Assembly: GCA_944372455.1 (NCBI GenBank)
Contig: CALVZF010000002.1
Span: 1 to 55,071, forward strand
Source of the DNA: an uncultured Bacilli bacterium
GTDB taxonomy: Bacteria; Bacillota_I; Bacilli_A; RF39; UBA660
DNA length: 55,071 bases
Direction of reading: 5' to 3'
Shown: piece after piece, positions 3,517-38,395 of the stretch
Layout of the letters: every line of letters starts with the position of its first letter
How positions within the stretch are numbered: the stretch's first letter is position 1
Translations under genes and position numbers: made by a program
Notes under the pieces: model-generated
Database searches by the model: none
Told to the model about the DNA's origin: nothing
Seen by the model: the letters and a program-made list of their open reading frames with translations, nothing else

Positions 3517-3590
3517 GCCGCAATAGTATAGTGGTATTACGAGGCCATGGTAAGGCTTTAATCGGTGTTCAATTCACCGTTGCGGCACCA
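3517..3590 (+). tRNA. tRNA-Thr (anticodon GGU)
   Basis: Hand-folded cloverleaf. Acceptor GCCGCAA/TTGCGGC, anticodon stem AGGCC/GGCTT with loop AT-GGT-AA, T arm CGGTG-TTCAATT-CACCG, encoded ACCA 3' end. Confidence 0.9.
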
Positions 3591-3816
3591 TTGGGAAATC
3601 TGCTTGAACTTATGAGCTTTATATATATTTTAAGGTAGGACTATATTGGTTCTACATTTTATTTATATATTTTGACAAAATGTCAAAATATATAGGGAGT
3701 TAGAGGTTTTGCACTCAAAATTTTTATACTGAAAAGCATTGGTTTTTTATTTCCCAAAATCAAAAAAAAATCATTTTTGGGAAATAATATGATATAATGT
3801 TATTGGAGGACTTATT

Positions 3817-5019
3817 ATGAAGCTAATAAAAAGAACTGATTATTTAGAGAAATTAATAAATACAATGAATACACCAGACATAAAAGTTATAACTGGTGTT
3901 CGTCGTGCTGGTAAATCAAAACTTTTAGAAGAATTCAAAAAATATATTATAAAGAATGACAAAGATTATAATATAATACATATTAATTACAATTTAACTA
4001 AGTATGAGAATATCAATGAATATCATAAATTAATAGAATATGTTGAGAAAAATTATAAAGATGATAAACAAAATTATTTATTAATAGATGAGGTTCAAAT
4101 GTGTGATGGTTTTGAAAAAGCAATTAATAATTTTCACGCTGAAGAAAAATATGATATTTATATTACTGGCTCTAATGCTTTTTTAATGAGTAGTGATTTG
4201 GCTACACTTTTTACTGGAAGAACATTTGAAATAAAAGTTTATCCATTTTCATATAAAGAATATTTAGAATATTATAATAAAGAAAACAATGAAAAAGCAT
4301 TTGATAGTTATGTTTATGAAGGTGGATTATCAGGCTCTTATCTATATAAAGAAAATGATGAAAAATATAATTATGTAAATGATATTTATAATACTCTTAT
4401 AAAAAGAGATATTTGTAATAAATATAAAATAAAAAAAGAACACTTATTAGATATGATTAACGATTTTCTAATGGACAATATATCAAATTTAACATCAGTT
4501 AGAAATATATCTGATTCTTTAACAAATAACAAAGATAAAATCAATCATAAAACAGTTAGTTTATATATAAAATATTTATGTAATGCCTTTTTATTTTATA
4601 AAATAAGAAGATATGATATTCAGGGTAAAAGGTATCTATTATCTCAAGATAAATATTATTTGGTAGATCAATCTTTTAAGTTCTCAAAATTGGGAACAAA
4701 AAATATTAATTATGGAAGAGTGTATGAAAATATAATAGCAATAGAACTGCTTAGAAGAGGATATGAGGTTTATGTTGGAACTTTATACAAAAAAGAAATA
4801 GATTTTGTAGCTACAAAAAGAAATGAAAAAGTTTATATTCAAGTATCAAGTGATATTGGAGATGATTTTGAAAATAAAACATTTAGAAGAGAAGTAGATC
4901 CTTTATTAAAAATAAAAGATGCATATCCTAAAATATTAATTGCTAGAACACATCATGATATGTATACATATGAGGGTATTCAAATAATAGATATTAAAGA
5001 TTGGCTTATTAAAAATTAG
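3817..5019 (+). CDS. AAA-family ATPase with a C-terminal DUF4143-like nuclease-fold domain
   Basis: Walker A-like ITGVRRAGKSKLL and Walker B LLIDEVQ. The C-terminal GYEVYVG..KEIDFV segment is typical of the AAA_14/DUF4143 family. RBS GGAGGA. Confidence 0.7.
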   Translation: MKLIKRTDYLEKLINTMNTPDIKVITGVRRAGKSKLLEEFKKYIIKNDKDYNIIHINYNLTKYENINEYHKLIEYVEKNYKDDKQNYLLIDEVQMCDGFEKAINNFHAEEKYDIYITGSNAFLMSSDLATLFTGRTFEIKVYPFSYKEYLEYYNKENNEKAFDSYVYEGGLSGSYLYKENDEKYNYVNDIYNTLIKRDICNKYKIKKEHLLDMINDFLMDNISNLTSVRNISDSLTNNKDKINHKTVSLYIKYLCNAFLFYKIRRYDIQGKRYLLSQDKYYLVDQSFKFSKLGTKNINYGRVYENIIAIELLRRGYEVYVGTLYKKEIDFVATKRNEKVYIQVSSDIGDDFENKTFRREVDPLLKIKDAYPKILIARTHHDMYTYEGIQIIDIKDWLIKN

Positions 5020-5193
5020 AATAAAATAATGAAAAAGTTTAAAAACCGTAAACTGTTAATATATTTTGGTTCGAGATACCTTATTTAAGGCACTATATGG
5101 ATAATTACTCGAACTTATAAAAGTTTGAGTTTTTAAATGTATTTATTTTTCATTTTAGCATATAATACATATAATAATATAAATATAAAAGAC

Positions 5194-5222
5194 TTGACGT
5201 ACATTAAAAAGTACGTTATAAT
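5194..5222 (+). promoter_or_regulatory. Sigma-A-type promoter with an embedded palindromic operator upstream of yefM-yoeB
   Basis: TTGACG (5194-5199), a 17-nt spacer, then TATAAT (5217-5222). The spacer carries the inverted repeat ACGTAC-N8-GTACGT. GTAC-core palindromes are the known operator type for YefM-YoeB. Confidence 0.55.
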
Positions 5223-5240
5223 GTAACTGAGGTGAAAAAT

Positions 5241-5495
5241 ATGAATACCATAAACATAACTAATGCTAGACAAAATCTATTTCAATTAGTTTCTGACGTA
5301 AATAAAGGATTTAATCCAGTCAACATAATCAACAATAAAGGTGAAAATGCTATATTGCTATCGGAAAGTGATTGGAGAGATATAGAAGAAACGATTTATT
5401 TAAACTCTATACCTGGCTTTGTAGAATCTATCAATGAAGCTAGGAAAGAAGATAAAAATAAATGTAGTATTTATAAAAAAGGTGAAGAATGGTAG
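5241..5495 (+). CDS. yefM: Phd/YefM-family antitoxin
   Basis: MNTINITNARQNLFQLV...ILLSESDWRDIEETIYL is a classical YefM N-terminal domain. RBS GAGGTG. Its stop overlaps the toxin start (ATGGTAG). Confidence 0.85.
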   Translation: MNTINITNARQNLFQLVSDVNKGFNPVNIINNKGENAILLSESDWRDIEETIYLNSIPGFVESINEARKEDKNKCSIYKKGEEW

Positions 5496-5761
5496 AATAC
5501 AAAATAATATTTTCTAAATTTGCTGATAAAGATAAAAAATTACTAAAGCAAGCTGGACTTGAAAATAAAACAAAAGAACTATTAGATTTAATAGCAATAA
5601 ATCCTTATCAAACACCACCGACATATGAAAAGTTAAAAGGAAACTTAAATGGTCTTTGTTCTAGAAGAATAAGTTATCAACATAGACTAGTGTATGAAAT
5701 AGATGAAAATAAAAAAGAAATATTTATTTTAAGGATGTGGACACATTATGATAAATTATAA
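5489..5761 (+). CDS. yoeB: YoeB/Txe-family mRNA interferase toxin
   Basis: KLKGNLNGLCSRRISYQHRLVYEIDENKKEIFILRMWTHY matches the conserved YoeB/Txe C-terminal core. Translationally coupled to the antitoxin. Confidence 0.85.
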   Translation: MVEYKIIFSKFADKDKKLLKQAGLENKTKELLDLIAINPYQTPPTYEKLKGNLNGLCSRRISYQHRLVYEIDENKKEIFILRMWTHYDKL

Positions 5762-6014
5762 TATTCTTTTAGAAATTAACCTTAATAGAAATTTCTAAAC
5801 TTGTACTACTACGACACCAGATTGATTATTACTAGAACTTTTCGATTTCATATACTAAAATGCACAATATATCCAAAATATTGTGTGTTTTTAATTTTGA
5901 TATAATTTTTATAGATAAATCTTAATGAAATGAAATATTATTGGAAATATAGAAAATATGATAAAATTAATATATAAAGAATAAAAAGAAAAATATCAGT
6001 TTAGGAGGATGAAA

Positions 6015-7217
6015 ATGGAACAATCAAAAATCAAGGTTAGTATTTTACCTAATCAATTTTTAAAATCAAATGGAACATTTGATAAAGAATCTGCAATTAA
6101 ATTATGCGGAAAAATTGCTGGAGTATGTTATGATAAAGAAGGATTTTCTCATCTTGAAAATGAACCAGAAGAAAAAACTATGCGTAGAGTTAATTTAACA
6201 TTAAATAACGGACATCATAGTGTTTATGATCACATTTTAATTAATTTTAATATGCAAAATTTACCTAAAATCTTAGCAATGGTATTAAATAATGAACATC
6301 AATATACAACAAGTGAAAAATCAGCAAGATATACACCAGTTATAAGACAAAATAATTCAATTATAACTTTTGAAGAAGAAAAGCTATATAATAAATGGAT
6401 TGAAATATTTAAAACTAAAATTAAGACCCAATATGGAAATGTATTTAATGATTCTAAAATCCAAAAGTTGGCACAAGAAAATGCTAGATATTTAGTAACG
6501 GTATTTATGCCTACACAAATGATTTATTCAACTTCTTTAAGACAAATAAATTATATTGCTTCTTGGATGCAAAATTATATTAAAACTGCTAATATGAATA
6601 ATAATTTTGAAAGAAATTTAAAAACAGCTATGGAAGAGCTATTAATAGAATTTGATAATGTTAATGTTCTTGAAGAAGGTTTATTACAAAATGAAAAATA
6701 TAGAAAATTATCTTTATTTGGAAAAAATTTAGATCAAAAAGAAGAATATTTTGGAAATGTTTATTCATGTACTTATAAAGGTTCTTTTGCTCAATTAGCA
6801 CAAGCACATAGACATAGAACTCTGGATTATCAAATGGAAATGTTATCCGAAAAAGAATATTTCATTCCACCAATTATTTTAGATGATCAAATGTTAGTAG
6901 ATGAATGGCTTAACGATATACAAATGGTTAGTAAAGTTACCCCACAAGGCCAATTAGTTAAAATTAATGAAATGGGTAAATATGAGGACTTTATTTTAAA
7001 ATGCAAAGAAAGACTATGCTCTTTTGCACAACTTGAAATAATGCTTCAAACTAAAGAAACGTTATTGAAATATAAAGAAGCATTAGAAAAAAAACAAAGT
7101 CCGTTAGCTAAAGATATTGAAAAATACTCTCACGGAGCTAGATGTACTTTTAAAGACTTTGATTGTAAATCAGACTGTAAATTTAATGAAGGTAAAAAAT
7201 TAATAAGAAAAATTTAA
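6015..7217 (+). CDS. ThyX-like protein (flavin-dependent thymidylate synthase fold), double length, with degenerate motifs
   Basis: The first half aligns by eye to ThyX: GHHSVYDH versus GHETPFEH, NNEHQYTTSEKSARY versus RHRxxSxxxxSxRY, and ENARYLVTVFMPTQMIYSTSLRQINY. The second half carries AQAHRHRTLDY and CSFAQLEIM. ATG 6015 is better spaced from AGGAGG than 6009. Confidence 0.5.
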   Translation: MEQSKIKVSILPNQFLKSNGTFDKESAIKLCGKIAGVCYDKEGFSHLENEPEEKTMRRVNLTLNNGHHSVYDHILINFNMQNLPKILAMVLNNEHQYTTSEKSARYTPVIRQNNSIITFEEEKLYNKWIEIFKTKIKTQYGNVFNDSKIQKLAQENARYLVTVFMPTQMIYSTSLRQINYIASWMQNYIKTANMNNNFERNLKTAMEELLIEFDNVNVLEEGLLQNEKYRKLSLFGKNLDQKEEYFGNVYSCTYKGSFAQLAQAHRHRTLDYQMEMLSEKEYFIPPIILDDQMLVDEWLNDIQMVSKVTPQGQLVKINEMGKYEDFILKCKERLCSFAQLEIMLQTKETLLKYKEALEKKQSPLAKDIEKYSHGARCTFKDFDCKSDCKFNEGKKLIRKI

Positions 7218-10881: not shown

Positions 10882-12105
10882 TTAACCATAAATTCCTTTT
10901 AACATATTAGATACTGCTGCAAAAATAGCTGATATTTTATACCAAGTAGCAAAATTTACTATTCCAGTTACTGGTAAATTAAAAACACTTTGAAATTTTT
11001 TAACCGCTTCTAAAGTTTCGTTATCAAAAACCCCATTAGCATTACTTATTAGTGGAATAGCGGGATAACTCCCCTTTATTTTATTTAAGGCATTTTGCAT
11101 TAATTGTATTGCTTCACTACAATCTCCTTTGCTTATATTATACCCTGGAAAAGATGTAGGAAGATTAGGAACTAATTCGGCAGTTTCTAAATTGATACTA
11201 TTTCCATAATAAAATCTTACAATTTGTAAAGCATTGTAACCTTGATCTCCTAAACTTTTAGATCCCCACTGACTTAACCAACCTTCTCTTACTACATTAA
11301 TACCATCACTGTACTGTGCTAAAAAAGGATATGATTGATTAGGAAATTGTAAATATTTATTAAAAATTTCATCTACTACATTTGATACAGTATCAAAAAT
11401 AGTTCTATTATGAGTATATTTTTGATCATAGGCAGTTGATGAAGTTATTGTAAAATTATAACCTTTAGATAAATACCATTCTGTATATACCCTATTTAAG
11501 GTAAATGAAACTATTGCATGCACATTGGCTTTTAAAGTTTCTCTTGGCCAAGTGGGATAAATCTCAGAACAAGCGACATTTTTTATATAGTCTGAAAAAG
11601 CTACATAATAATTTGGAGCATAAGTATCACTAGGTATTCCATCATGAACTATAATATATTCTGGAATAACTATTCTAGGTAAAACCTTTGGGTTTATTTC
11701 ATTAAGTTGTGTAGAATTTTCTACAAGTTTAGTTGGATCATTTGCCCATAAAGCTGGCGGAGATATTACAGTTACATTTTTAGCAGATTCTCCTAGTGTT
11801 GTTCCGAAAACTATATTCTGAAAAGAATCCACATTAGCATATATTTGTACTCCTACTACCCCATTTGTTCCTATTCCATCTTTAGAAGCAGTTACTGTAT
11901 AGGTACTAAACGGTTGAGTTACATTTTGTGGTTCTAAAGAATAATCAACATCAGGAGCTTCTAATTCTATAGTTTCTGTTTTTCCAGATTCATCTGTAAC
12001 TAAATCTATATTAGTATTTTCCCCACTTATATTAACCTTTGCGCCACTTAATGGTTGGGCAATATTATCTACAAATACACTAACAGTTAAACGTCCTATT
12101 GCCAT
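10882..12105 (-). CDS. sleC: SleC-like spore cortex-lytic enzyme (pre-pro form) with a C-terminal PG_binding_1 domain
   Basis: The N-terminal MAIGRLTVSVFVDN..LEAPDVDYSLEP is a carboxypeptidase-regulatory-like beta domain. The central part reads YIIVHDG..PNYYVAFSDYIKNVACSEIYPTWPRETLKANVHAIVSFTLNRVYTEWYLSKGYNFTITSSTAYDQKY. The C-terminal part reads AIQLMQNALN..GVFDNETLEAVKKFQSVFNLPVTGIVNFATWYKI. This architecture matches my recollection of clostridial SleC. The start is taken at ATG 12105. Confidence 0.65.
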   Translation of the reverse strand: MAIGRLTVSVFVDNIAQPLSGAKVNISGENTNIDLVTDESGKTETIELEAPDVDYSLEPQNVTQPFSTYTVTASKDGIGTNGVVGVQIYANVDSFQNIVFGTTLGESAKNVTVISPPALWANDPTKLVENSTQLNEINPKVLPRIVIPEYIIVHDGIPSDTYAPNYYVAFSDYIKNVACSEIYPTWPRETLKANVHAIVSFTLNRVYTEWYLSKGYNFTITSSTAYDQKYTHNRTIFDTVSNVVDEIFNKYLQFPNQSYPFLAQYSDGINVVREGWLSQWGSKSLGDQGYNALQIVRFYYGNSINLETAELVPNLPTSFPGYNISKGDCSEAIQLMQNALNKIKGSYPAIPLISNANGVFDNETLEAVKKFQSVFNLPVTGIVNFATWYKISAIFAAVSNMLKGIYG

Positions 12106-12229
12106 AAAATCTAATTCCTTTCTTTTATTACAATTAAATATATGCACAAATATCAAAATAATAAGTAAAATGCACCTTCTAAAACCTAAACAATATAATA
12201 ATAGTGATAATGATAGGAGGTTATATTAA

Positions 12230-12811
12230 ATGGATTCCTCATTAAAAAGTGATGAAATAGAGTTAAATCCAACATTAAAAGAAGGAGATACTGGTAACTA
12301 TGTTATAATTTTACAGGCAAAATTAAAAGTTTTGGGATATTACGATCTTAGTATAACAGGTAGTTTTGATAATTATACTAAAGATGCTGTTGTTAAATTT
12401 CAAAAAGCTAATGATATTAGTCCAACCGGAATTGTAAATTCCGAGTCTTGGTTAAAATTATACGAATTAACTAGTCAAAGAGAAAGTGCCTATAATATAA
12501 AACAGACAAAACCTACATTAAAACTTGGTAGTACTGGAATATATGTTGTAGAACTTCAAACTCTTTTGAAAGATTTACTTTATTATAATGGTCCAATAGA
12601 TGGAAATTTTGATACAACTACTCAAACAGCCGTTAAATCTTTTCAAACTAATAACAGATTAACTTCTGATGGTATAGTAGGAAGAAATACTTGGAGTGCC
12701 CTTGAAACTCTTTATACTCCATTAGCGATTTGTAATGGTGAAAATAACGGTGAAAATCAAACTTATACAGTCGTTTCAGGGGATACAAATTTTATGGGGA
12801 ATAATGGGTAA
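12230..12811 (+). CDS. 5' segment of an interrupted gene: two PG_binding_1 domains plus the first 8 codons of a LysM domain, then 8 element-encoded codons and a stop
   Basis: RBS AGGAGG. Two PG_binding_1 domains are present: GDTGNYVIILQAKLKVLGYY..GSFDNYTKDAVVKFQKANDISPTGIV and GSTGIYVVELQTLLKDLLYY..GNFDTTTQTAVKSFQTNNRLTSDGIV. The ORF ends ..QTYTVVSGDT|NFMGNNG*, so the LysM consensus YxVxxGDTLW breaks exactly at the element junction. Confidence 0.8.
   Translation: MDSSLKSDEIELNPTLKEGDTGNYVIILQAKLKVLGYYDLSITGSFDNYTKDAVVKFQKANDISPTGIVNSESWLKLYELTSQRESAYNIKQTKPTLKLGSTGIYVVELQTLLKDLLYYNGPIDGNFDTTTQTAVKSFQTNNRLTSDGIVGRNTWSALETLYTPLAICNGENNGENQTYTVVSGDTNFMGNNG
12766..12793. other. attL junction (chromosomal half-site, GG core, element half-site)
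   Basis: tacagtcgtttca-GG-ggatacaaatttt. The right arm is the inverted partner of the arm at 16164..16176 (see findings). Confidence 0.65.
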
Positions 12812-12869
12812 ATTTATTGATTTATTTAGAAAAAAGTCTATAATATAAAACAAGAAAGGAGATTTGTTA

Positions 12870-13229
12870 ATGAATGAAACTTTTGATGTAGGAAACCCAA
12901 CAAAAGAAAATATCGACTTTGCTTTTAAAAATTTAATATTTTATGTTACAGCTTCAACTCAATTAGATATTTACAAAGAACAAAAAAAGAATTTTGAAAA
13001 AGTATTAGTCGAAATTAATACGATTTTAGCAACATATGTGAATAAAGAAAGTCTAGTATCTATAGATGAAGAAAAATTGCAAAATATAAAATTTGATTTA
13101 ATTGATTTAGATACTGAAACAAAATCTTTAAAATCTTATTTTGCAGAATGGTCTTTGTTGTGGTTAGAGGCAATTATTTCTTTAAGAATGTCAGAAATTA
13201 AAATGGAAGGTGTTAATAATGGCAGATAG
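12870..13229 (+). CDS. Element cargo: hypothetical alpha-helical protein
   Basis: RBS AAGGAGA lies 7 nt before ATG 12870. No recognisable motif. Confidence 0.45.
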   Translation: MNETFDVGNPTKENIDFAFKNLIFYVTASTQLDIYKEQKKNFEKVLVEINTILATYVNKESLVSIDEEKLQNIKFDLIDLDTETKSLKSYFAEWSLLWLEAIISLRMSEIKMEGVNNGR

Positions 13230-13800
13230 AGATAAGTATGGAAATTATGTAAATGATAAAGGGGTTACTATAAAGGTTAATACAGATAAAAATGGTAATG
13301 ATCATATTAGTTTTTATGGCAGTGAAGTAGATAAACCACATGATGCGGCACATGTTAATGTAAATTATGATAAAGGATCATGGAGTTCTACAACACATGG
13401 ACCTGATAAAAGTGATACAAGTTCAGGATCAGGTGGTTGTTATTTAACTTCAGCTTGTATGAAATATTTTCAAGAAAAATTTGATGATAATTGTTATGAA
13501 TTAACAGTACTAAGATGGTTTAGAGATAATTTTGTTTCAAAAGAAGATATACAACATTACTATGAAGTAGCACCAATTATTGTTGAAACAATTAATAAAG
13601 AAGAAAAATCTGATATTATTTATGATTATATTTACGATAATATAGTAGATTATTGTGTTGAACAAATTGAACAAGGAAACTATGAGACAGCATATAACAG
13701 ATATAAAAATAGTGTTTTAGTATTAGAAGAACAATTTGCAAAACCAGCATTAACAGATAGATTTGTAAAAACTTTAAAATTAAAAACTAATAATCAGTAA
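13219..13800 (+). CDS. Element cargo: hypothetical protein with a conserved-looking Cys motif (GGCYLTSAC...DDNCYELTVLRWFRD)
   Basis: RBS GGAAGGTG precedes ATG 13219, and the gene overlaps the previous ORF by 11 nt. The CY[LI]T[ST]AC..C[YE]EL..LR.FRD pattern is one I have seen in uncharacterised phage and bacterial proteins. No function is assigned. Confidence 0.45.
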   Translation: MADRDKYGNYVNDKGVTIKVNTDKNGNDHISFYGSEVDKPHDAAHVNVNYDKGSWSSTTHGPDKSDTSSGSGGCYLTSACMKYFQEKFDDNCYELTVLRWFRDNFVSKEDIQHYYEVAPIIVETINKEEKSDIIYDYIYDNIVDYCVEQIEQGNYETAYNRYKNSVLVLEEQFAKPALTDRFVKTLKLKTNNQ

Positions 13801-13805
13801 AAATT

Positions 13806-13853
13806 AATCATCCTATAAAATTTAGTGAAAACTAGAAATTAGGATGATTTTTT
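13806..13853 (+). terminator. Candidate intrinsic terminator after the element cargo genes
   Basis: AATCATCCT (13806-13814) pairs with AGGATGATT (13841-13849) and is followed by TTTT. The loop is long (26 nt), hence the moderate confidence. Confidence 0.4.
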
Positions 13854-14125
13854 GTGCTATAAATTATTGTTAATATTAGACTTATCCTATATAGCATCCT
13901 ACTTTGTAGGATGAATTTCGTAAGTACGAAATAAGCATGGTGCATATACAAGCCCTTATTTCATAAGGAAAAGTGAGTATATATGCACCATTTTCTTATC
14001 CTGCTATTCAATATTTTAATAGATTCTTAACTATTTTAGGATGATAGATAAAATCTTCTATGCTTTATGACTTGACTCTTTTAATAATTGGAGCTACCAT
14101 GCACCATGTGAAGGAGATGATGTGA

Positions 14126-14275
14126 ATGAAAAGAATTAATTTTTATTTACCAGAGGAGTTATTTGAAAGAATTAAATTACTCCCAAATTAGTATAACATT
14201 TCTATGACTAAATTAATGAAAGAATTATTAGAAATTGGTTATATAGATATGTTAGATACACGAAAAAATAAATAA
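14126..14275 (+). pseudogene. Ribbon-helix-helix (CopG/Arc-like) gene with an in-frame TAG at codon 22
   Basis: RBS AAGGAGA, then MKRINFYLPEELFERIKLLPN-TAG(14189-14191)-YNISMTKLMKELLEIGYIDMLDTRKNK*. The beta-strand then helix-helix pattern continues across the stop. Confidence 0.5.
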
Positions 14276-14420
14276 TAAAGTAGAGAGGTTTGGTGATGAA
14301 TATGATAATAAAAATAATGGTGGTTTATGATAGTAAGTAATATTATTAGGTATGCAAAAACCATACCAAGTAATATTACAAAAATTATAACCATAGAATT
14401 AATTGGGGGTATTAAACTCT

Positions 14421-14600
14421 ATGGTTAAATACAAAGTTAATTTAAAGTTTAAAGAAAGCGGAAAATCTTTAAATGAAATAATAACTGAAGTATTAAAACT
14501 TGAAATAATAAAGCAATTTATGAAGACTTGCAATAATTTGAAAGTAGAGCTACCATGTAATCGTACTCATTATTCCCAAAATGGAAGGAGTTATAATTGA
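14421..14600 (+). CDS. Small protein (59 aa) translationally coupled to the serine recombinase; candidate accessory, regulator or directionality factor
   Basis: GGGGGT lies 10 nt before ATG 14421. The product is MVKYKVNLKFKESGKSLNEIITEVLKLEIIKQF.... The TGA stop (14598-14600) overlaps the recombinase ATG (14600-14602). Confidence 0.45.
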   Translation: MVKYKVNLKFKESGKSLNEIITEVLKLEIIKQFMKTCNNLKVELPCNRTHYSQNGRSYN

Positions 14601-16165
14601 TGGTTGGGAATAATAGTTTTAAAGTAGGATTATATATAAGATTATCAAGAGATGATGGAAATATTGAATCAGATAGTATTATTAGTCAAAGAAGTTTATT
14701 AAATCAATATGTTAAAGAAAATAATTATGTAATAGTAGATGAATATGTAGATGATGGATTTTCTGGAACTAATTTTGATAGACCAGCTTTTAAAAGAATG
14801 ATTAAAGATATTGAAATGGGTAAAATCAATATGATAATAACAAAAGATATGTCAAGATTAGGCAGAGATTATATAGGTACTGGTGAATTAATTGAAAAGT
14901 ATTTTCCAAATAATAATATTAGGTATATTGCAATTAACGATGGAATAGATACTTTTATTGATAATACAAATAATGATATTGCACCATTTAAAGCAATTAT
15001 GAATGATATGTATGCTAAAGATATTTCTAAAAAAATCAAAAGTAGTCTTCATTCAAGAATGAAAGATGGATTATATGTATCTGGTAGATGCTCTTTTGGT
15101 TATATGAAAGATCCAAATAATAAAAATCATTTAGTTGTAAATGAAGAACAAGCAGAAATTATTAAATTAATATTTGATTTAGCACTTAAAGGTAATACTT
15201 ACCACTATATAGCACAATATCTTACCGAAAGAAAAATTAAAACTCCGGCATCTTATTATAATTATGTTTGGAATACTAAATGTATAAATGCAAATTGTAT
15301 TTCACAAGAATATGGAGTATGGGTAGATACCACTATAAAAGCAATTCTTACTAATCCAATATATGTAGGAGATACAGTTCAAGGTAAGACTAAAAAGATT
15401 AATTATAAATTGAAAAAAACAGTTAAAAATAAGCCCAATGATTTTATAATAGTAGAAAATACGCATGAAGCAATCATAGATAGAGATACTTTTAATTATG
15501 TTCAAACACTTTTACCAAAAAATGTTAAAAGACCAGAGAAAAAAAGATTTTACCTACTTGATGGACTTTTATATTGTGGAGATTGCAAGCATCGTATAAC
15601 TGTTAGGTATCAAACTAAAACTGGTAAAAGTTATACTACTTGTAATTATTATAGAACATATTCAAAGTATCATGTATGTACAACTCATACAAATAACTAT
15701 GAAACATTAGAAAACGTTGTTTTAGATAATATCAGAGAAGTGTGTAAAAGTTATTTAGATAAGAGTAAGATAAAAGATTCTATTGGTAATATAGAGTTTG
15801 AAGACAATAGTTTAAAGATTAAAAAGCAAATTGAAAGTTTGGAACTTACTAATAATAAATTAACTGAAAGTCTAGATAAAACATATATGGATAGATTAAA
15901 GGGAATAATTGATGAAGAACAATATATAAGAATAAGTGAAAACCTAAAGCAAGAAATAGAAAGTAATAAATCAAGCATTGATAATCTCAAGAATGAACAA
16001 ATAGAAGAAAATAAAATAGACAATAAACAAATAGAAAAATATATAAATGAATTTTTATCATTAAATAATCTAACTAGAGAATTAATAATTAATTTAGTTG
16101 AGAAGATCTACATCTATCAAGATAAACGGGTAGATATTATATTTATATTTAAAAATGCTACATAA
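14600..16165 (+). CDS. Large serine recombinase (resolvase catalytic domain, recombinase domain, zinc ribbon and coiled coil)
   Basis: RBS GGAAGGAG. Motifs: VGLYIRLSRDDG..SDSIISQRSLL (catalytic Ser region), DDGFSGTNFDRPAFKRMI, ITKDMSRLGRDY, Cys cluster CGDCKHR..C..C, and a C-terminal heptad-rich segment. Confidence 0.9.
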   Translation: MVGNNSFKVGLYIRLSRDDGNIESDSIISQRSLLNQYVKENNYVIVDEYVDDGFSGTNFDRPAFKRMIKDIEMGKINMIITKDMSRLGRDYIGTGELIEKYFPNNNIRYIAINDGIDTFIDNTNNDIAPFKAIMNDMYAKDISKKIKSSLHSRMKDGLYVSGRCSFGYMKDPNNKNHLVVNEEQAEIIKLIFDLALKGNTYHYIAQYLTERKIKTPASYYNYVWNTKCINANCISQEYGVWVDTTIKAILTNPIYVGDTVQGKTKKINYKLKKTVKNKPNDFIIVENTHEAIIDRDTFNYVQTLLPKNVKRPEKKRFYLLDGLLYCGDCKHRITVRYQTKTGKSYTTCNYYRTYSKYHVCTTHTNNYETLENVVLDNIREVCKSYLDKSKIKDSIGNIEFEDNSLKIKKQIESLELTNNKLTESLDKTYMDRLKGIIDEEQYIRISENLKQEIESNKSSIDNLKNEQIEENKIDNKQIEKYINEFLSLNNLTRELIINLVEKIYIYQDKRVDIIFIFKNAT

Positions 16166-16191
16166 AAATTGTATCTGGAGATACTCTTTGG
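16164..16191. other. attR junction (element half-site, GG core, chromosomal half-site)
   Basis: aaaaattgtatct-GG-agatactctttgg. The left arm is the inverted partner of 12781..12793. Confidence 0.65.
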
Positions 16192-16626
16192 AAGATAGCT
16201 CAAAAATTTAATACTACTGTAGATGAAATAAAAAGTTTAAATAATCTTACTAGTAATATAATTACAATAGGTCAAAAACTATTAATACCAAGTTCAGATA
16301 ATAATATTATTCCACCAAGTAATAATATTACATATACAGTAGTTAAAGGAGATACTTTATGGAAATTATCTCAAAGATTTAATACTACTGTAGATGCTAT
16401 AAAAAAACTTAATAACTTAATGAATAACAATTTAAGTATTGGACAAAAATTACTAATTCCAACAAATAATCAAAATATAACAAATTATGTAGTAGTTAGA
16501 GGAGATACTTTATGGAGCTTAGCTAGAAAATTTAATACTACAGTAAGTGAAATAAAAAAGTTGAATAATCTTACTAGTGATAACTTAAGTATTGGACAAA
16601 AATTATTAATATCTCAAAATTATTAA
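16179..16626 (+). CDS. 3' segment of the interrupted gene: the rest of LysM 1 plus LysM 2 and 3. No start codon or RBS of its own
   Basis: The frame is open from 16153. It reads ..(IVSG)DTLWKIAQKFNTTVDEIKSLNNLTSNIITIGQKLLIP, YTVVKGDTLWKLSQRFNTTVDAIKKLNNL..IGQKLLIP and YVVVRGDTLWSLARKFNTTVSEIKKLNNL..IGQKLLIS. The repeats are also similar at nucleotide level, with a 153-171 nt period. The track ORF 16420..16626 is only the part after the first internal Met. Confidence 0.8.
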
Positions 16627-27870: not shown

Positions 27871-28581
27871 TTATCCAGTAATAATTGTGACAATAATAGG
27901 TCCTAAAACAATTAATAACATTAGTGGTATAAAAAAGATAACTGATAAAATACTAATTTTAATTGGAAGTTTACCTATTTGTCCTCTAATACTTTGAATT
28001 CTTTTATCTGCTAAAAAATCAATTTGATTATACATTGTATCAATAATATTACCACCAAAAATATTAGTTTGACTAATATTTAAAATAATATTGTTAATAT
28101 TATCAGATGGTATTCTTTTTCTCATGTCATCTAAAGCTTCATCTAAACTTTTACTGTAATTCATTTCATTTAAAGTTTTTTTGAATTCGTTAGATAACTC
28201 ACTATCAATATTATCACAAGTAATTTCTAAAGCACTTTTTAAATCTCTACCCGTTTCAACAGATAAAGTTAAAACTTCAAAAAAGTTTACTGCTTCAGCT
28301 TCAAGCTTGCTAATTCGCTTTTTAATTCTATAATCAATTACTATATAATAAATTCCCAAGTAATAAAGTACACTCATAAGAGGAGCATAAATATAACCAT
28401 AATCGGGAACTAAATAAAGTAATACAAAAAATAATATTATTGTAGTAATAAGTCTAATATTTAAAAATACTATAGGATCAATTTTATTATATATACCTAA
28501 CATTTCTACTTTACTCTTAGTTTTTTCAATGGACTTTTTAGTATATACTTTACGCGCTAAAGGAAATTCTTTTCTCATCAT
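27871..28581 (-). CDS. tadC: TadC-like platform protein (single T2SS-F domain)
   Basis: A T2SSF-type helical domain (FFEVLTLSVETGRDLKSALE...SLDEALDDM) between TM segments. ATGA overlap with tadB. Confidence 0.7.
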   Translation of the reverse strand: MMRKEFPLARKVYTKKSIEKTKSKVEMLGIYNKIDPIVFLNIRLITTIILFFVLLYLVPDYGYIYAPLMSVLYYLGIYYIVIDYRIKKRISKLEAEAVNFFEVLTLSVETGRDLKSALEITCDNIDSELSNEFKKTLNEMNYSKSLDEALDDMRKRIPSDNINNIILNISQTNIFGGNIIDTMYNQIDFLADKRIQSIRGQIGKLPIKISILSVIFFIPLMLLIVLGPIIVTIITG

Positions 28582-29591
28582 TACACCTTAATTCTCATTG
28601 TTTTTTTAACAAAATATACATAAAGTACAAATATAATTATAATTAGTCCAGTGATAACTAGTCCTATTTCTGTAGTATATAAAGGAGTAAAGTAACTTGG
28701 ATTTAAGAAGAAAATTATAAGAAAAATTATAAATGGAGCACTTACTAATACTTTAAACATAATTTCAGAAGAAGCAGTTAAAGTTTTCATTTCGTTTTTT
28801 AATTTTCTTCTATTAAAGAAAGATTTTTCTATTGAAGAAAATACTTTAACAATATCTCCCCCAGTTTTATTTAAAATGGTAAGAGAAGCTGTTATATATT
28901 TAACATCCTCAGTATTAATTCTTTTAGCAAATCTTTCAAAAACAATATCTAATTCTAATCCAAAAGAAATATCAATATACATTCTATTAAATTCTTCACC
29001 TATAGGTCCAGATAACTCATGTTTTACTATTTCAATAGCTTGCATAGTAGTACGTCCACTTTTGAAAGCACTATTCAATATAATTATAGCTTTTAAAATA
29101 TCTTCATCAATTTTTTTCTTTCTTTTATAGTTTTTAAAAAATAAAACGATATCAATGGTAAAGAAGCCACCTACTAAAATTATAAATATTTGTAGTATAC
29201 TAAAATTTCTATATTGTAATACGTTAAATAAAAGAGTAACTAAAAATAGAAAAATAGTTAAAACAAGTTTTGAAGAGACATAATCCATAGGATCTACTAC
29301 ATTTTTTTTGGAATATGGAATATATTTATTATATTTAGAAGCTATTTTTTTAAGAAAATAAGAATGGTTAAATATTTTATTTAAAGCTTTAATTAATTTA
29401 TTATATAAATTTATTCCTTTATCAAAAAAAGATTCAACATTATTATTTAAGGGTTCAACAGAATATCTTCCAATTCGCTTTTCTAAGTTTGCAGCATGCC
29501 TAAATAGTAATACTTGTATTAAAATTATTATAAGTATTACTATTATTATTATCTGCAATATAAATAAAGGGATATTAATGTTATTTCCCAT
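28581..29591 (-). CDS. tadB: TadB-like platform protein (single T2SS-F domain)
   Basis: ILNSAFKSGRTTMQAIEIV..GPIGEEF...FERFAKRI with flanking TM helices. ATG 29591 follows AGGTGA, and the GTG at 29600 lies within the RBS. Confidence 0.7.
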   Translation of the reverse strand: MGNNINIPLFILQIIIIVILIIILIQVLLFRHAANLEKRIGRYSVEPLNNNVESFFDKGINLYNKLIKALNKIFNHSYFLKKIASKYNKYIPYSKKNVVDPMDYVSSKLVLTIFLFLVTLLFNVLQYRNFSILQIFIILVGGFFTIDIVLFFKNYKRKKKIDEDILKAIIILNSAFKSGRTTMQAIEIVKHELSGPIGEEFNRMYIDISFGLELDIVFERFAKRINTEDVKYITASLTILNKTGGDIVKVFSSIEKSFFNRRKLKNEMKTLTASSEIMFKVLVSAPFIIFLIIFFLNPSYFTPLYTTEIGLVITGLIIIIFVLYVYFVKKTMRIKV

Positions 29592-29600
29592 AAGTATCAC

Positions 29601-30929
29601 CTACTTACCAAAAATATCTTTTAAGTTTTTGATTCCTTTTGAAGTAATTTTTTCATATACTTTTGGAATATAATTATAAAGAATAAACTCTCCATCTACT
29701 TCTCCGTTTGAAGTAAGACCTTTTTGACGGAATGCAAAGATTTCTTGAAGTTTTAAAACTCCATTTTTAATTTCAGTAATCTCGCTAATAGAAGTTATTT
29801 TTCTTCTACCATCTCCAAGTCTTTCAATATGTACTACTAAATCAATTGCATTAAATATATATTCTCTAATCGCACTTACTGGTATATCTAATCCTGCCAT
29901 TAATACCATTGATTCTAATCTATTTAAAGCATCTATTGGAGAATTAGCGTGCATTGTAGTTAATGAACCATCATGACCAGTATTCATAGCTTGAAGCATA
30001 TCAAAAGCTTCTTTTCCTCTTACTTCTCCTACAATTATTCTATCTGGTCTCATTCTAAGAGAGTTAATTACTAAATCTCTAATAGTAATTTCTCCTTGAT
30101 TTTCATAGTTTTCTGGACGAGTTTCAAGACTAATAACATGATTTTGTTCCAGTTTTAATTCAGCAGCATCTTCAATTGTGATTATTCTTTGATCATCTGG
30201 AATAAAACTAGATAAAATATTTAGAAGTGTAGTTTTACCAGCACCAGTTCCTCCACTAACTATTATATTTAAATTAGCTTCTACGCAAGCTTCTAAAAAT
30301 CTAGCCATATATGGAGTTAAGGTACCACTACGTAAATAATCATCAATACTAGTCATGTTTTTTCTAAATTTACGAATAGTTAAAACTGGACCTTTTAAAG
30401 ATAATGGTGGAATAATTGCATTAATTCTAGAGCCATCTGGTAGTCTTGAATCTACCATTGGATTTGAAGCATCAATCGTTCTACCAAGAGGTTGAACCAT
30501 TCTTTGTATAGTTCTTAAAATATGATCATTATTAATAAAAGAAACCGAATCATCTTTAACTACTTTCCCATTAATTTCAATATATATTTCATTTGGTCCA
30601 TTTACCATTATTTCAGTAATATTCCCATCTTCTAGTAACTCAGTAATTGGTCCATAACCATTAATTTCATTTTCAATTAAATTGTAAATATGGGCACGTG
30701 CTAAATTAGATAGATCGTATCCTTCCAATGTTTTATCTATTTCATCATTAATATAATCTTTTAAAATTTTATCTTTGGGAATTTTATCATCAATAATATT
30801 TTGAATAATTTGATTTCTCAAACTATCAAGTAAAACTTTGTTTGGAAAAACTTCATAATCAGATAAAATACTTATTTTATTTTGTTTAGGCTTTATATCA
30901 AAAGCTTCTGTTAAAGTTTTTTTAGGCAT
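29601..30929 (-). CDS. cpaF: CpaF/TadA-family secretion ATPase
   Basis: Walker A GGTGAGKTTLLN, Asp box IITIEDAAEL, Walker B RIIVGEVRG, His box TGHDGSLTTMHAN. Confidence 0.9.
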   Translation of the reverse strand: MPKKTLTEAFDIKPKQNKISILSDYEVFPNKVLLDSLRNQIIQNIIDDKIPKDKILKDYINDEIDKTLEGYDLSNLARAHIYNLIENEINGYGPITELLEDGNITEIMVNGPNEIYIEINGKVVKDDSVSFINNDHILRTIQRMVQPLGRTIDASNPMVDSRLPDGSRINAIIPPLSLKGPVLTIRKFRKNMTSIDDYLRSGTLTPYMARFLEACVEANLNIIVSGGTGAGKTTLLNILSSFIPDDQRIITIEDAAELKLEQNHVISLETRPENYENQGEITIRDLVINSLRMRPDRIIVGEVRGKEAFDMLQAMNTGHDGSLTTMHANSPIDALNRLESMVLMAGLDIPVSAIREYIFNAIDLVVHIERLGDGRRKITSISEITEIKNGVLKLQEIFAFRQKGLTSNGEVDGEFILYNYIPKVYEKITSKGIKNLKDIFGK

Positions 30930-31699
30930 TATTTCACCTTCTTATCTTTTATTAGGTCAAGTGCCATATTTTTAAAATTTTGAAAATCTTTTCTTTTGGC
31001 TTTTTGAATTTTTTTATCTAATAGTAAAATTTTTCCATTAATTGTATAATTATCTATATCTTTAATATAAAAATTTTTAGAAATAGTATAATCAATATTA
31101 GAGCCAATTACGGTTTTAATATCAAATGTAGTAAAGTAATCTTTTCCAGTATCTCTAGAATTATTGTACAATATTTTATAGTTATTAATTTGATTATCAT
31201 TAAAAATAGAAATTATTGATTTAGTGTTTTTAAGATCTACTGGATCATTAGTTACTACAAACAAAGTATTATAAGCACTATCCATAATAGTAAGATTTAT
31301 TTCAGTTAAAATATGGGTAGTATCTATTAAAATCACTTCATATTTACTTTCTACATTGTATAAAAGTAAATCAATATATTTAGCTTCTACTTTCATGGCT
31401 TGTCTTGGGTCTTTAGGTGCGCATATTACATCAATACCTTCAATGTAATTATATATATAATCATCAATATGCATAAATCTATTATTCATCATGTCATCAA
31501 CTACATTATAAACAGTCTTTTTATTTTTTAAATTTAAAGCAAGAGCGAGTGCTCCACCATATAGATCTAAATCTATTATTAAAACTTTTTTACCTAATAA
31601 GTGATAAGTAGCAGCAAGATTAAGCAATACTGTAGTTTTTCCTACTCCACCTTTTGTAGAAGTTATACAAATTGTTTTGGCTTTTTTAATTTTAGGCAT
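30929..31699 (-). CDS. ParA/MinD-type ATPase (CpaE/TadZ-like)
   Basis: Deviant Walker A TSTKGGVGKTT followed by IIDLDLYGG. Confidence 0.75.
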   Translation of the reverse strand: MPKIKKAKTICITSTKGGVGKTTVLLNLAATYHLLGKKVLIIDLDLYGGALALALNLKNKKTVYNVVDDMMNNRFMHIDDYIYNYIEGIDVICAPKDPRQAMKVEAKYIDLLLYNVESKYEVILIDTTHILTEINLTIMDSAYNTLFVVTNDPVDLKNTKSIISIFNDNQINNYKILYNNSRDTGKDYFTTFDIKTVIGSNIDYTISKNFYIKDIDNYTINGKILLLDKKIQKAKRKDFQNFKNMALDLIKDKKVK

Positions 31700-31710
31700 G
31701 TAATCACCTT

Positions 31711-32094
31711 CTAACCCTTTTTTAATTCTTTTTTATTATCTAATATTGTACCTTCATACTTAGATACAATTTTATATTCTTTTATTCCTATTATTTTTCC
31801 AAAAGTACTTTCTATATTTTTATGAAAATTAATATTAATTTGATTAGTACCAATTTTAATATTATCAATAATTATTTTATCATCATTTTTAAGTATTAAC
31901 TCTTTTATTTCACTTTCTAAATTCTTATTTTCAAGTTTTTCTAATGATAAAGAAATAACCATCTTATTAATTTCATCTAATTTATTTTTATTTTGATACA
32001 TAGTAGTTATATCTATTACAGTAGCCATAATAATTATTAATAATGGTAAAAATACTACAAACACTATTAAAGTTTGACCTTTATTATTTATCAT
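31711..32094 (-). CDS. TadE/TadG-like pseudopilin-type protein
   Basis: The N-terminus MINNKGQTLIVFVVFLPLLIIIMATVIDI fits the TadE/G-like N-terminal pattern (G then hydrophobic, ..P.L.....D). Confidence 0.55.
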   Translation of the reverse strand: MINNKGQTLIVFVVFLPLLIIIMATVIDITTMYQNKNKLDEINKMVISLSLEKLENKNLESEIKELILKNDDKIIIDNIKIGTNQININFHKNIESTFGKIIGIKEYKIVSKYEGTILDNKKELKKG

Positions 32095-32431
32095 ATACTA
32101 CCCTACTCACCTTTATCTTGTATGGACTATCTAATAACAAATTTAATCCAGGAGTTATGATATCTACTGAAGTGAATAGTCTTACCTCTTTATACTTACC
32201 ATTAGTAACTATTCTATAAGTAACTTTCTTACTAGTATCTTGATTTATAAACGAAATAATTTCTTCTTCTGTTTCATTATTTTGTATCATATTAATAACA
32301 TCATTTAATTTACTTTCAAGCTTACTTTTGTTATATATTATTACTCCGAAATCAATAGTGGCAAAAAGTATCATAATTAGTACTGGTAAAACAATAACAA
32401 ATTCTACTAAGGCTTGACCTTTTTGTTTCAC
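32084..32431 (-). CDS. TadE-like (pseudo)pilin with a class III signal, KG|QALVEF
   Basis: GTG 32431 lies 10 nt after AGGGG and gives MKQKG|QALVEFVIVLPVLIMILFATIDFG, with Gly at -1 and Glu at +5. The track start at 32440 has no spacing from the RBS. Confidence 0.6.
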   Translation of the reverse strand: MKQKGQALVEFVIVLPVLIMILFATIDFGVIIYNKSKLESKLNDVINMIQNNETEEEIISFINQDTSKKVTYRIVTNGKYKEVRLFTSVDIITPGLNLLLDSPYKIKVSRVVYDK

Positions 32432-32489
32432 TAATATCACGCCCCTATTATATCTAGTATATCAGAAAATTTGAGATTTTTAAATATTT

Positions 32490-33251
32490 TTATACAAGAT
32501 AATTTATTAAATCTAATAATGATACACTAGTAAATTTTAAAAGTAGTAAAATAATTGCAGTTATAGAAAGGAATGGTCCAAAAGGGACAATATTATCTTT
32601 TTTTCTTATCATTGTAATAATAGCATAAGGAAGCGCAATAAAAGATGCCAAAAATATTATTACAATAGCTGTTTTAATATGAAAAACCAAGCCAAAAAAG
32701 AAAAATAATTTTATATCTCCCCCACCTAATGATTCAGTTTTAAAAATAAAATCTCCAATCCATTTTATTAAATACATAAAACAAAAACAAAGAACGCCAT
32801 AAAATATAGCTAATAAAAATGAGAAAACTCCATTTAATATTAAAGTTTCTATAAGTATTAGAATGCTTCCACATATTAAAACTTCATCTGAAATGATCAT
32901 GTATTCAATATCGCTAATTATTACTATTATTAAAATTGAAACAAACGTAATAGGTATTATTACGTTTACACTTAATCCAAAAACTATATAACACAAACTA
33001 AATAGAATTCCTGTTAATAATTCATATATTGGATATTTAATTGATATATGTGTTTTACAATTTCTACATTTTCCCAATTGAATTAGATATGAAATAACCG
33101 GGATAAGCTCATACCATTTTAATTTTTTATTACACTTCTCACAATGAGATGGAGGATTAATAATAGATTTTCCTTCTGGAAGTCTTAAAGCAACTACTTG
33201 AAAGAAAGATCCAAAAACTAACCCAAATATAAAGAAAATTAAACAAACCAT
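32490..33251 (-). CDS. pilD: Prepilin peptidase (A24 family, PilD/ComC-like, with an N-terminal Cys4 domain)
   Basis: Motifs CEKCNKKLKWYELIPVISYL..GKCRNCK, and the conserved Asp regions ISD and GGGDIKLF. ATG 33251 follows GGGGG. Confidence 0.85.
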   Translation of the reverse strand: MVCLIFFIFGLVFGSFFQVVALRLPEGKSIINPPSHCEKCNKKLKWYELIPVISYLIQLGKCRNCKTHISIKYPIYELLTGILFSLCYIVFGLSVNVIIPITFVSILIIVIISDIEYMIISDEVLICGSILILIETLILNGVFSFLLAIFYGVLCFCFMYLIKWIGDFIFKTESLGGGDIKLFFFFGLVFHIKTAIVIIFLASFIALPYAIITMIRKKDNIVPFGPFLSITAIILLLLKFTSVSLLDLINYLV

Positions 33252-33261
33252 AAAATACCCC

Positions 33262-34917: not shown

Positions 34918-35040
34918 AAAATGCCCCTCTCCTATTCTAACTATTAAATAGTATATCATATTAGTTAATTTTTTTAAATAAATTTTTAGAAAGTAACTTA
35001 ATTTTACATAAAACATATAATGTGGTAAGGGGGATTACTT

Positions 35041-38185: not shown

Positions 38186-38395
38186 ATAAAAAAAATCTAT
38201 TACTTCCTAATAAGGACGAAATAGATTCCGCGGTACCACCTTAATTCACATTTAATGTGCACTCAAATATTTAACGCTATTAACGTTGTCTTACTTTTTG
38301 AAACAAGTTCATAAATCTTTTAAATTAGTTTTCACCAACCACTAACTCTCTTAATTAAAAAAATTTATTACTACTTTTCAAAGACAATAAAAATA
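38186..38395 (-). promoter_or_regulatory. T-box leader (Leu; specifier CUU) with terminator/antiterminator
   Basis: On the reverse strand: an AGAGAG stem I motif, a specifier loop ..GAA-CUU-G (plus-strand AAG at 38305-38307), the T-box AATTAAGGTGGTACCGCGG (38228-38240 region), and the terminator AATCTATT..AATAGATTTTTTTT. Confidence 0.8.

Follow-up and report, generated by a model that had tools for sequence, protein, structure and literature searches.

The 55,071-nt stretch of contig CALVZF010000002.1 (positions 1 to 55,071) from an uncultured Bacilli bacterium from the RF39 lineage (assembly GCA_944372455.1), in the following referred to as the window, contains a cell-wall-binding gene with LysM repeats that is interrupted by a 3.4-kb element encoding a large serine recombinase (LSR). 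The 5′ part of the host gene (12230..12780, plus strand) encodes two PG_binding_1 domains and the start of the first LysM repeat, LysM-1, through the GG dinucleotide of the presumed crossover. The inserted element (12781..16178, plus strand, 3398 bp) has a GC content of 24.8% compared to 25.2% in the window, with all of its genes co-directional with the host gene, and is followed by the 3′ part of the host gene (16179..16626, plus strand), which codes for the remainder of LysM-1 and then LysM-2 and LysM-3. The open reading frame (ORF) at 12230..12811 on the plus strand is 193 amino acids (aa) long and ends with ..NQTYTVVSGDT followed by NFMGNNG and a stop codon, the latter tail being encoded by the element; the translated left junctions of two relatives, L085 and L089, likewise carry a tail of the form (N/I/L)FMGNN(G/E) and a stop. 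The 3′ frame of the host gene is open from position 16153, around the stop codon of the recombinase (16163-16165), and reads KCYIKIVSGDTLWKIAQKFN..., with (K)IVSGDTLWKIAQKFN.., up to the stop at 16626. Its earliest start codon is the ATG at 16420, which leaves about 80 codons without a start, and the 150 untranslated codons of the 3′ part contain neither a stop nor a frameshift.

Joining of 12230..12780 to 16179..16626 gives 999 nt in frame that encode a protein of 332 aa, in which Pfam recognizes two PG_binding_1 domains (E=1.9e-35) and three LysM domains (E=2.5e-54); LysM-1 (residues 179-221) spans the junction and covers model positions 1-43 of 43. The original prediction, made from the window alone, had claimed a PG-binding/LysM gene cut by a 3.4-kb serine-recombinase element, a 332-aa frame restored upon excision, and a silent 3′ part devoid of a start codon, and all three claims are borne out, with the split located at 12780/16179 and no start ahead of the ATG at 16420. 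The analysis thus supports a 3′ part that would be silent with the element in place and a gene that would be rebuilt by precise excision.

Uninterrupted relatives of the gene

A search with the joined frame for intact orthologues yielded many full-length uninterrupted homologues, and nothing that contradicts the split was encountered. The homologue P0005 is 331 aa long and is 70% identical to the joined protein over 99% of its length (E=2.8e-141). The loci L003, L004 and L005 contain the intact gene in divergent orientation beside an orthologue of the same neighbouring gene as in the window (72-75% identity), and at the exact position of the junction these loci have the contiguous sequence ..ACTTATACAGTAGTTGCT-GG-TGATAGCCTTTGG.., to be compared with ACTTATACAGTCGTTTCA-GG-AGATACTCTTTGG in the window after in-silico joining. 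Since full-length uninterrupted homologues exist, the split goes far beyond chance. It is also not an assembly artefact, as two independently produced assemblies, L001 (Logan ERR4096322) and L002 (ENA ERZ28614620), match the window at the left junction with 100% identity; both are short contigs with only the left junction within their reach. The L001 contig (3193 bp) stops 63 nt into the conserved left arm of the element, which would be expected if several related elements, or occupied and empty forms, break the assembly graph. The species of the window has no match among the GTDB representative genomes.

Attachment sites in LysM repeats

Elements of the same type, with recombinases 83-92% identical to that of the window, occur in at least 29 distinct insertion contexts, all of them inside LysM repeats. 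Among the distinct junctions, the right ends (attR) lie in LysM-coding sequence in 29 cases out of 29 and the left ends (attL) in 21 out of 22; three of the right ends failed a strict regular expression for LysM, although they are visibly LysM repeats that end the protein, and were counted as LysM. For the 21 loci with both ends, in which the elements range from 3.2 to 8.6 kb, in-silico excision in every case restores the frame and leaves a complete LysM across the joint, and the 3′ fragments of the host genes are undecayed in all 21. The host genes represent at least five architectures, namely PG_binding_1-LysM (in the window only), Amidase_3-LysM, Peptidase_M23-LysM, GH25-LysM with a signal peptide and LysM-only, and insertions strike the first, second or third repeat as well as later ones. 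Throughout the 21 loci the N-terminal catalytic or PG-binding domains are spared and LysM repeats alone are removed. In L085 and L089 the arrangement is the same within an Amidase_3-LysM gene, and both ends of these elements are nearly identical to those in the window, with the host-encoded ..Y-T-V-K-S-G-D-T followed by NNTTTTTATGGGGAATAATGRGTA at the left end and ..AAAAATGTTACATAAAAATTGTATCW-GGNGATAC followed by the host sequence at the right end.

In the window, attL (12760..12806, plus strand) consists of the host half-site TATACAGTCGTTTCA, GG at 12779-12780 and the element half-site GGATACAAATTTTATGGGGAATAATG, and attR (16161..16200, plus strand) of the element half-site CATAAAAATTGTATCT, GG at 16177-16178 and the host half-site AGATACTCTTTGGAAGATAGCT. 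The arms of the element are mirror-symmetric, with CATAAAAA-TT-GTATC-W on one side of GG and N-GATAC-NN-TTTTTATG on the other. To the right of GG in attR the variation is codon-like (GATAGT, GACACG, GATTCA), as in host sequence, and the sequence to the left of GG in attL is likewise that of the host, therefore strand exchange must be placed at or next to GG, the two bases that open the glycine codon of the LysM motif S-G-D-T. From the symmetry of the arms we infer GG to be the cut site, and the two GG pairs define the element boundaries used here, which give the same join as the original prediction. Large serine recombinases use a non-palindromic 2-bp centre, and, because the central dinucleotide here is non-palindromic, all elements are co-directional with the host gene. 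The sites otherwise have the organization of LSR attachment sites, with inverted-repeat arms around a central dinucleotide and no duplication beyond the shared core. The left arm in the window departs from the consensus of the family by a single substitution (AAATTTTATG instead of NNTTTTTATG). The attP would be the nearly palindromic CATAAAAATTGTATCW-GG-NGATACNNTTTTTATG, and the junctions predicted for the window are ..ACTTATACAGTCGTTTCAGGAGATACTCTTTGGAAG.. for attB and ..CATAAAAATTGTATCTGGGGATACAAATTTTATGGGG.. for attP. Further attB-like sites, both unoccupied, are present in LysM-2 (16333..16355) and LysM-3 (16486..16508) of the host gene. At the level of the compared sequences, these junctions show that the family inserts precisely, with well-defined boundaries, and with specificity for LysM repeats.

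The recombinase

The recombinase gene (14600..16165, plus strand) encodes 521 aa from an ATG, or 522 aa from a TTG at 14597. Large serine recombinases are proteins of about 450-700 aa with a resolvase domain containing Y-x-R-x-S, a Recombinase domain and a zinc beta-ribbon, and the window protein displays all of these features, with Pfam matches to Resolvase (E=7.4e-22), Recombinase (E=5.8e-24) and Zn_ribbon_recom (E=5.1e-11) and the N-terminal sequence ..VGLYIRLSRDDG... Its best match among solved structures is the catalytic domain of TnpX (E=1.5e-28), and among named full-length proteins TndX of Tn5397 comes closest (36% identity over 97% of the length, E=2e-82). Phage SPbeta is absent among the matches to phage records listed at E<=1e-30. 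Homologues with 84-91% identity make up more than 120 clusters in the database, several hundred proteins strong in some cases, and 459 confirmed matches were found in a metagenome contig collection, many of them labelled human gut.

More distant sister recombinases with 53-55% identity are found in L094, L095 and L143-L158. In L094 and L095 (53% identity) the module of a ribbon-helix-helix (RHH) gene, a small ORF and the recombinase is kept, and no LysM remnant is found downstream of the recombinase. A hairpin block with ATCTTATCCTG is retained in L146 (2673..2817) and L150 (2374..2518). The L085 locus additionally has a second, unrelated large serine recombinase of 505 aa (13454..15566), which runs off the locus, is preceded by a helix-turn-helix gene and a 61-aa ORF, and lies about 5 kb downstream of the LysM-inserted element; it is possibly part of another integrative element.

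Mobility and cargo of the family

The loci L092 and L112 have host flanks that are 98.0-98.6% identical, and neighbouring LysM repeats of a single M23-LysM gene are occupied in the two by elements that differ. The recombination modules of the two elements are 84% identical, the cargo is different, and the elements measure 3235 and 4581 bp, respectively. In-silico excision of the L112 element reproduces the uninterrupted repeat of L092 with 0/121 mismatches, and the reciprocal operation gives 3/121. The two loci are natural empty sites for each other's element, therefore the boundaries are validated and the integrations are independent. The element type of the window itself, with the same two cargo genes e121 and e196 and a nucleotide identity of 86-90% along the whole element, resides in this M23-LysM gene, and not in a PG_binding gene, in L092, L093 and L124. 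Furthermore, in L115 (5363..9207) an element of 24% GC sits in flanks of 44-50% GC, inside a secreted GH25-LysM gene next to genes for a glycosyltransferase, Wzy and UDP-galactopyranose mutase that indicate a polysaccharide-synthesis locus, and the same insertion is found in L116 and L117. The compared loci thus show the family to be horizontally mobile, and no stable tie of the element to one target gene is seen, given the 29 LysM contexts, the polymorphism between strains and the mismatch in GC content.

The cargo varies between the elements and is frequently a known defence system. The Pycsar proteins PycC and PycTM are encoded in L119, IetA with an adjacent S8 protease and a DpnII-type restriction-modification system in L123, an Old-family nuclease in L126, a DpnII-type restriction-modification system in L089 and L130, and an HNH protein in L115; further cargo of the family comprises RhuM with UPF0158, an SDR protein, and a 727-aa protein resembling kinases, phosphatases and ligases. 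Extra aminoacyl-tRNA synthetases are present as well, a class II protein similar to threonyl-tRNA synthetase in L119 and L142 and a tyrosyl-tRNA synthetase in L126, possibly as alleles that confer resistance or immunity to inhibitors of these enzymes.

The IMG/VR contigs L092 and L093 are labelled viral and first looked like prophages using this integrase. A prophage origin was rejected, as both contain the same 3.2-kb element in an M23-LysM gene a few kilobases from a prophage lysis cassette. A blastn search with the whole window element against 50,697 phage records found a recombinase match of 3% only. No transport by known phages or plasmids is evident, since neither this search nor that with the candidate origin of transfer described below, run against plasmids, gave a match of that kind. 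No type IV secretion system family was found among the cargo proteins scanned across the surveyed elements of 3.2-8.6 kb.

Layout of the element and a candidate origin of transfer

With 3.4 kb, its own LSR, small ORFs and two cargo ORFs, the window element has the size and modules that go with an integrative mobilizable element (IME). A sigma-70-like promoter, TTGATT-16-TATAAT, recognized by consensus match only, precedes the cargo genes (12817..12844, plus strand). The first cargo gene, e121 (12864..13229, plus strand, 121 aa), has the same ORF in the L092/L093 element; it has no match in Pfam or PADLOC, nor does its L092 counterpart in PHROGs. The second, e196 (13210..13800, plus strand, 196 aa), has homologues in the elements of L092, L141 and L154, equally with no match in Pfam or PADLOC, and in PHROGs for the L092 counterpart; the AlphaFold2 single-sequence model of e196, with a mean predicted local distance difference test score (pLDDT) of 50, was too poor for a fold search. 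A terminator-like hairpin, AATCATCCTA..TAGGATGATTTTTT (13806..13853, plus strand), lies 3′ of the cargo and is kept in nearly all aligned elements.

Downstream of the terminator is a structured non-coding block (13898..14005, plus strand) of three hairpins followed by the almost invariant CTTCTTATCCTGCT. Compensatory double changes are seen in 14 of the 27 predicted base pairs, and the octamer TATCCTGC at 13997..14004 equals the nick consensus of MOBP systems. This consensus, (C/T)ATCCTG(C/T), is located just 3′ of an inverted repeat in RP4, in T-DNA borders and in tfs4 (PMC3772185). In L146 and L150, in spite of recombinases only 53-55% identical, the layout is the same, with other stems and the same nick-like motif. 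Because of the covarying hairpins, the MOBP-like nick motif and a layout that is kept in distant relatives, we propose that the block is a candidate orphan origin of transfer (oriT) of the MOBP type, which would make the elements mobilizable. An Rfam scan of the element (gathering score and E<=1) assigned no known RNA family to the conserved non-coding block.

A conserved sigma-A-like box, P1 (14072..14100, plus strand, TTGACT-17-TACCAT), is located 5′ of the recombination operon, and a similar box, P2 (14528..14556, plus strand, TTGCAA-17-TACCAT), lies inside the 59-aa ORF shortly before the recombinase. The surrounding regions 14068..14103 and 14524..14559 share a similar box ATGACTTG(A/C)..GAGCTACCATG, and the two have the appearance of sigma-A promoters or of a pair of operator sites. 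The RHH-like gene (14126..14275, plus strand, 49 codons) is in the window interrupted by an in-frame TAG at 14189..14191, between MKRINFYLPEELFERIKLLPN and YNISMTKLMKELLEIGYIDMLDTRKNK, and is probably a pseudogene. It is intact (65-67 aa) in L111, L123, L126 and L154, absent from L085 and L089, and missing from many apparently intact relatives. A conserved 33-aa ORF (14327..14428, plus strand) contains an 18-bp inverted repeat (14337..14379, GTAATATTATTAGGTATG-N7-CATACCAAGTAATATTAC) that is largely conserved across the family and is possibly an operator, an attenuator or an RNA hairpin. Finally, a conserved 59-aa ORF (14421..14600, plus strand, MVKYKVNLKFK...TCN..LPCNHTHYSQ), the TGA of which overlaps the recombinase ATG as TGATG, is kept open in 30 distinct versions. 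Its AlphaFold2 single-sequence model (pLDDT 60) was uninformative and too poor for a fold search. The protein is a candidate accessory factor or recombination directionality factor (RDF).

The divergent neighbouring gene

Outside the element, the gene at 10882..12156 on the minus strand encodes a SpoIID-like region (a weak match) and a C-terminal PG_binding_1 domain in Pfam, and its product is annotated with 407 aa on another contig of this species. The original prediction had named it sleC-like. The divergent orientation holds true and a C-terminal PG_binding_1 is present, but sleC as an identity was not confirmed, since NCBIfam gives a sub-threshold SpoIID/LytB match only and homologues of the product are named just peptidoglycan-binding protein in the sources; "sleC-like" is therefore used here as a statement on architecture. 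In the region 5′ of the gene (12105..12160, minus strand) a motif CATATATTTAA(A)TTG is kept in the 75% identical relatives L003 and L004 and, as judged by eye, is similar to the -10 boxes of CATA type that belong to mother-cell sigma factors.

Discussion

The insert is probably a small integrative element, likely mobilizable, from an abundant and apparently undescribed family that targets LysM repeats. In the mechanism that we propose, the recombinase would use the DNA of the LysM motif (..Y-T-V-x-S/K-G-D-T-L-W..) as its attachment site, with the crossover occurring at GG between a nearly palindromic attP and an attB in any suitable LysM repeat. Once inserted, the element would close the 5′ part of the gene with its own ..FMGNNG/E tail and stop codon and leave the 3′ LysM repeats untranslated, and as the N-terminal domains, here two PG_binding_1, would stay expressed, the cost to the host may be low. 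The general layout from left to right would comprise attL, a cargo promoter, variable cargo, a terminator, the hairpin block, a sigma-A-like promoter, an optional RHH gene, the 33-aa ORF, the 59-aa ORF, the recombinase and attR. If it acts as TnpX and TndX do, the recombinase would excise the element as a circle and exactly rebuild the LysM gene, and the circle could re-integrate in another LysM repeat or transfer, probably with the help of a conjugative element in the same host that acts at the oriT-like site. TnpX both excises and integrates Tn4451 without an RDF, using a 2-bp core and producing a precise circle (PMC5704250). For the window element we infer excision without a sporulation signal, roles for the 59-aa protein and the RHH gene, and current activity of the copy at hand.

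Several points weigh against this model. The case for excision, the circle and transfer is wholly comparative. The element encodes no relaxase, no counterpart of the oriT-like block turned up among 72,556 plasmids searched with blastn, and the oriT assignment draws on an 8-nt motif and hairpins, which could equally function as RNA. All five of the five contigs bearing the 193-aa truncated product of this species are of the occupied type, and no intact product with more than 70% identity to the joined protein was found, which would also fit a fixed, domesticated copy. The stop codon in the RHH gene may mean that the window copy is regulated differently from its relatives, and the 59-aa ORF overlapping the recombinase start could, as an RDF, permit regulated excision. 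The hosts also appear to be spore formers, as indicated by sleC-like and CwlJ-like neighbours, so that a link to sporulation is not implausible.

Such a link was part of the original prediction, which had likened the insertion to the mother-cell elements skin and SPbeta; its LSR-bounded insertion into a coding sequence and its in-frame rejoining stand, but the developmental tie to this particular gene is not supported. The element would in that case be kept in the forespore and excised in the mother cell, where a spore-envelope protein with LysM and PG-binding domains would be rebuilt to act jointly with the cortex-lytic neighbour; we regard this as unlikely. The architecture, an LSR in a split coding sequence with exact restoration, is indeed that of skin, SPbeta, gin and yin, and gin likewise is without phage genes and has a restriction-modification system. 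The neighbour of the window gene is of SleC-type architecture, the amidase-LysM targets in L085 and L089 are near a gene for a 140-aa Hydrolase_2 protein (the SleB/CwlJ family), the small ORF that precedes and is coupled to the recombinase may encode an RDF, and all five sightings of the species are occupied. The choice of target, however, tracks the LysM motif rather than a role in sporulation, extending to a secreted GH25-LysM gene of a polysaccharide locus in an organism of 44-50% GC, to M23-LysM and LysM-only genes and to varied repeats, and as the recombinase follows this motif anywhere, the place beside the sleC-like gene is most simply a by-product of the LysM repeat being located there. 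The family is moreover horizontally mobile and polymorphic between 98% identical strains, and the recombinase groups with TnpX and TndX, with SPbeta not among its listed phage matches. The promoter-like boxes conserved 5′ of the recombinase operon are sigma-A-like only, by consensus match, which is weak evidence in either direction, and an inspection by eye for sigma-E, -K, -F and -G motifs 5′ of the target gene and the recombinase operon recognized none of the sigma-E or sigma-K type. The undecayed 3′ fragments at all 21 loci, which agree with timed excision, are equally predicted by recent insertion.

The occupancy of all sightings, the in-frame stop in the RHH gene and the left-arm substitution would also suit an element that integrated once and is now immobile, with the host gene simply truncated to a 193-aa protein of two PG_binding_1 domains. 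This appears quite unlikely, as neither the recombinase nor the 59-aa ORF, the two att arms or the oriT-like block is damaged and all are near the consensus, many apparently intact relatives do without the RHH gene, and the 150 untranslated codons of the 3′ part have remained free of stops and frameshifts. Still another scenario is a phase-variation switch selected by the host, in which excision and re-integration would toggle the LysM modules of autolysins in subpopulations, akin to the "active lysogeny" of comK prophages. While the insertions always spare the N-terminal domains and remove LysM repeats only, and a TnpX-like enzyme could both integrate and excise without extra factors, the excised circle has no recognizable replication function and would be lost at division, making the switch mostly one-way, and the variable defence cargo and the transfer across lineages suggest a selfish or cargo-driven spread; we therefore hold this scenario to be very improbable. 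A bolder idea, that LysM-coding DNA is a universal landing pad, phage and host lysins included, and that some copies in spore-forming hosts, possibly including the one beside the sleC-like gene, have been co-opted for timed excision, seems unlikely to us. If it were true, the recombinases would have evolved to read the nucleotide footprint of a domain motif that recurs within and between genes and in distant lineages, very small elements with defence cargo would thereby gain numerous safe insertion sites in each genome as well as a wide range of hosts, and a co-opted copy would rebuild a spore-envelope or autolysin gene on schedule, a new target class for programmed DNA rearrangement.

As a small, probably mobilizable element with LysM specificity, the insert can be set beside several known systems. 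Tn4451 and Tn4453 from C. perfringens and C. difficile resemble the window family in being small, in residing in low-GC anaerobes, in carrying cargo and in being moved by an LSR. Tn4451 differs in having its own Mob relaxase, TnpZ, with an oriT, and a low target specificity (PMC5704250). The window family, in contrast, has no relaxase, a MOBP-like nick motif, a GG core and strict LysM specificity. The crossover core of Tn4451 is reportedly GA. Lacking a Mob gene, with a GG core and a recombinase about 36% identical to TndX as the nearest named relative, the window element falls outside the Tn4451/Tn4453 group. Tn5397 of C. difficile, a self-conjugative element of roughly 21 kb, provides in TndX the closest named full-length relative of the recombinase, although only about one third of the residues are identical and the target is another one.

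Serine-recombinase IMEs of Firmicutes typically insert into and disrupt dispensable genes (PMC5704250). Those of streptococci and other Firmicutes, such as the ones in rumA, are similar to the window family in possessing one serine recombinase and very short end repeats, in integrating site-specifically with disruption of a non-essential gene and in depending on helper conjugative elements (PMC5704250). They differ in that each targets one orthologous gene and most have a relaxase, whereas the window family targets a repeated domain-coding motif with many sites per genome and has at most an orphan oriT. An attachment site set by a protein-domain motif is thus what distinguishes the family from the known serine-recombinase IMEs.

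The intervening elements of spore formers include skin (sigK, SpoIVCA), SPbeta (spsM, SprA-SprB), gin (gerE, GirC-GirX), vfbin, vrin and yin (yabG); in C. difficile, skin is excised by CD1231 with the RDF CD1234, and gin is a 28.6-kb element without phage genes but with a restriction-modification system. As in the window, a coding sequence is split by an insert that bears an LSR, and removal of the insert restores the coding sequence exactly. The intervening elements each occupy one mother-cell gene, are prophage-derived or large, and in the studied cases have their excision timed by a sporulation-controlled RDF, whereas the window element measures 3.4 kb, is horizontally mobile and has a domain motif in many genes as its target, and no sporulation control was found for it. 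The original prediction did not recognize its target as a described one, and this agrees with the intervening-element literature that we found, where sigK, spsM, spoVFB, spoVR, gerE and yabG are the targets and LysM is unmentioned. In the comK prophages of Listeria (A118, phi10403S) a serine-integrase element also resides in a gene, the function of which is restored by excision, but these are full prophages in a single specific gene and their excision is triggered inside the host cell.

The comparison illustrates that not every gene of a spore former that harbours a serine-recombinase element need be under a developmental switch of the skin type. Attachment to LysM repeats would explain how elements of 3-9 kb with Pycsar, Iet, Old, restriction-modification systems or spare synthetases can settle without harm in hosts whose GC content ranges from about 25% to about 47%, which bears on the spread of defence systems, and many LysM autolysins annotated as "truncated" may in fact be split genes. 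A series of related LSRs with a short, defined and degenerate attB may also help in studying and engineering target recognition by recombinases.

Other features of the window

Elsewhere in the window, a tRNA-Thr gene is followed by a gene for an AAA_14/DUF4143 ATPase (3817..5019) and one for a 402-aa protein with a partial ThyX (Thy1) domain only (6009..7217), and the region 3517..7217 is possibly another small island at a tRNA gene. A Tad/Flp-type pilus cluster occupies 27871..35016 on the minus strand, including a TadA/VirB11-like ATPase (29601..30929) and a GspF/PilC-like protein (33262..35016). Finally, a T-box leader (38209..38387, minus strand; Rfam RF00230, 101.5 bits) is located 5′ of leuS (35426..37822, minus strand).

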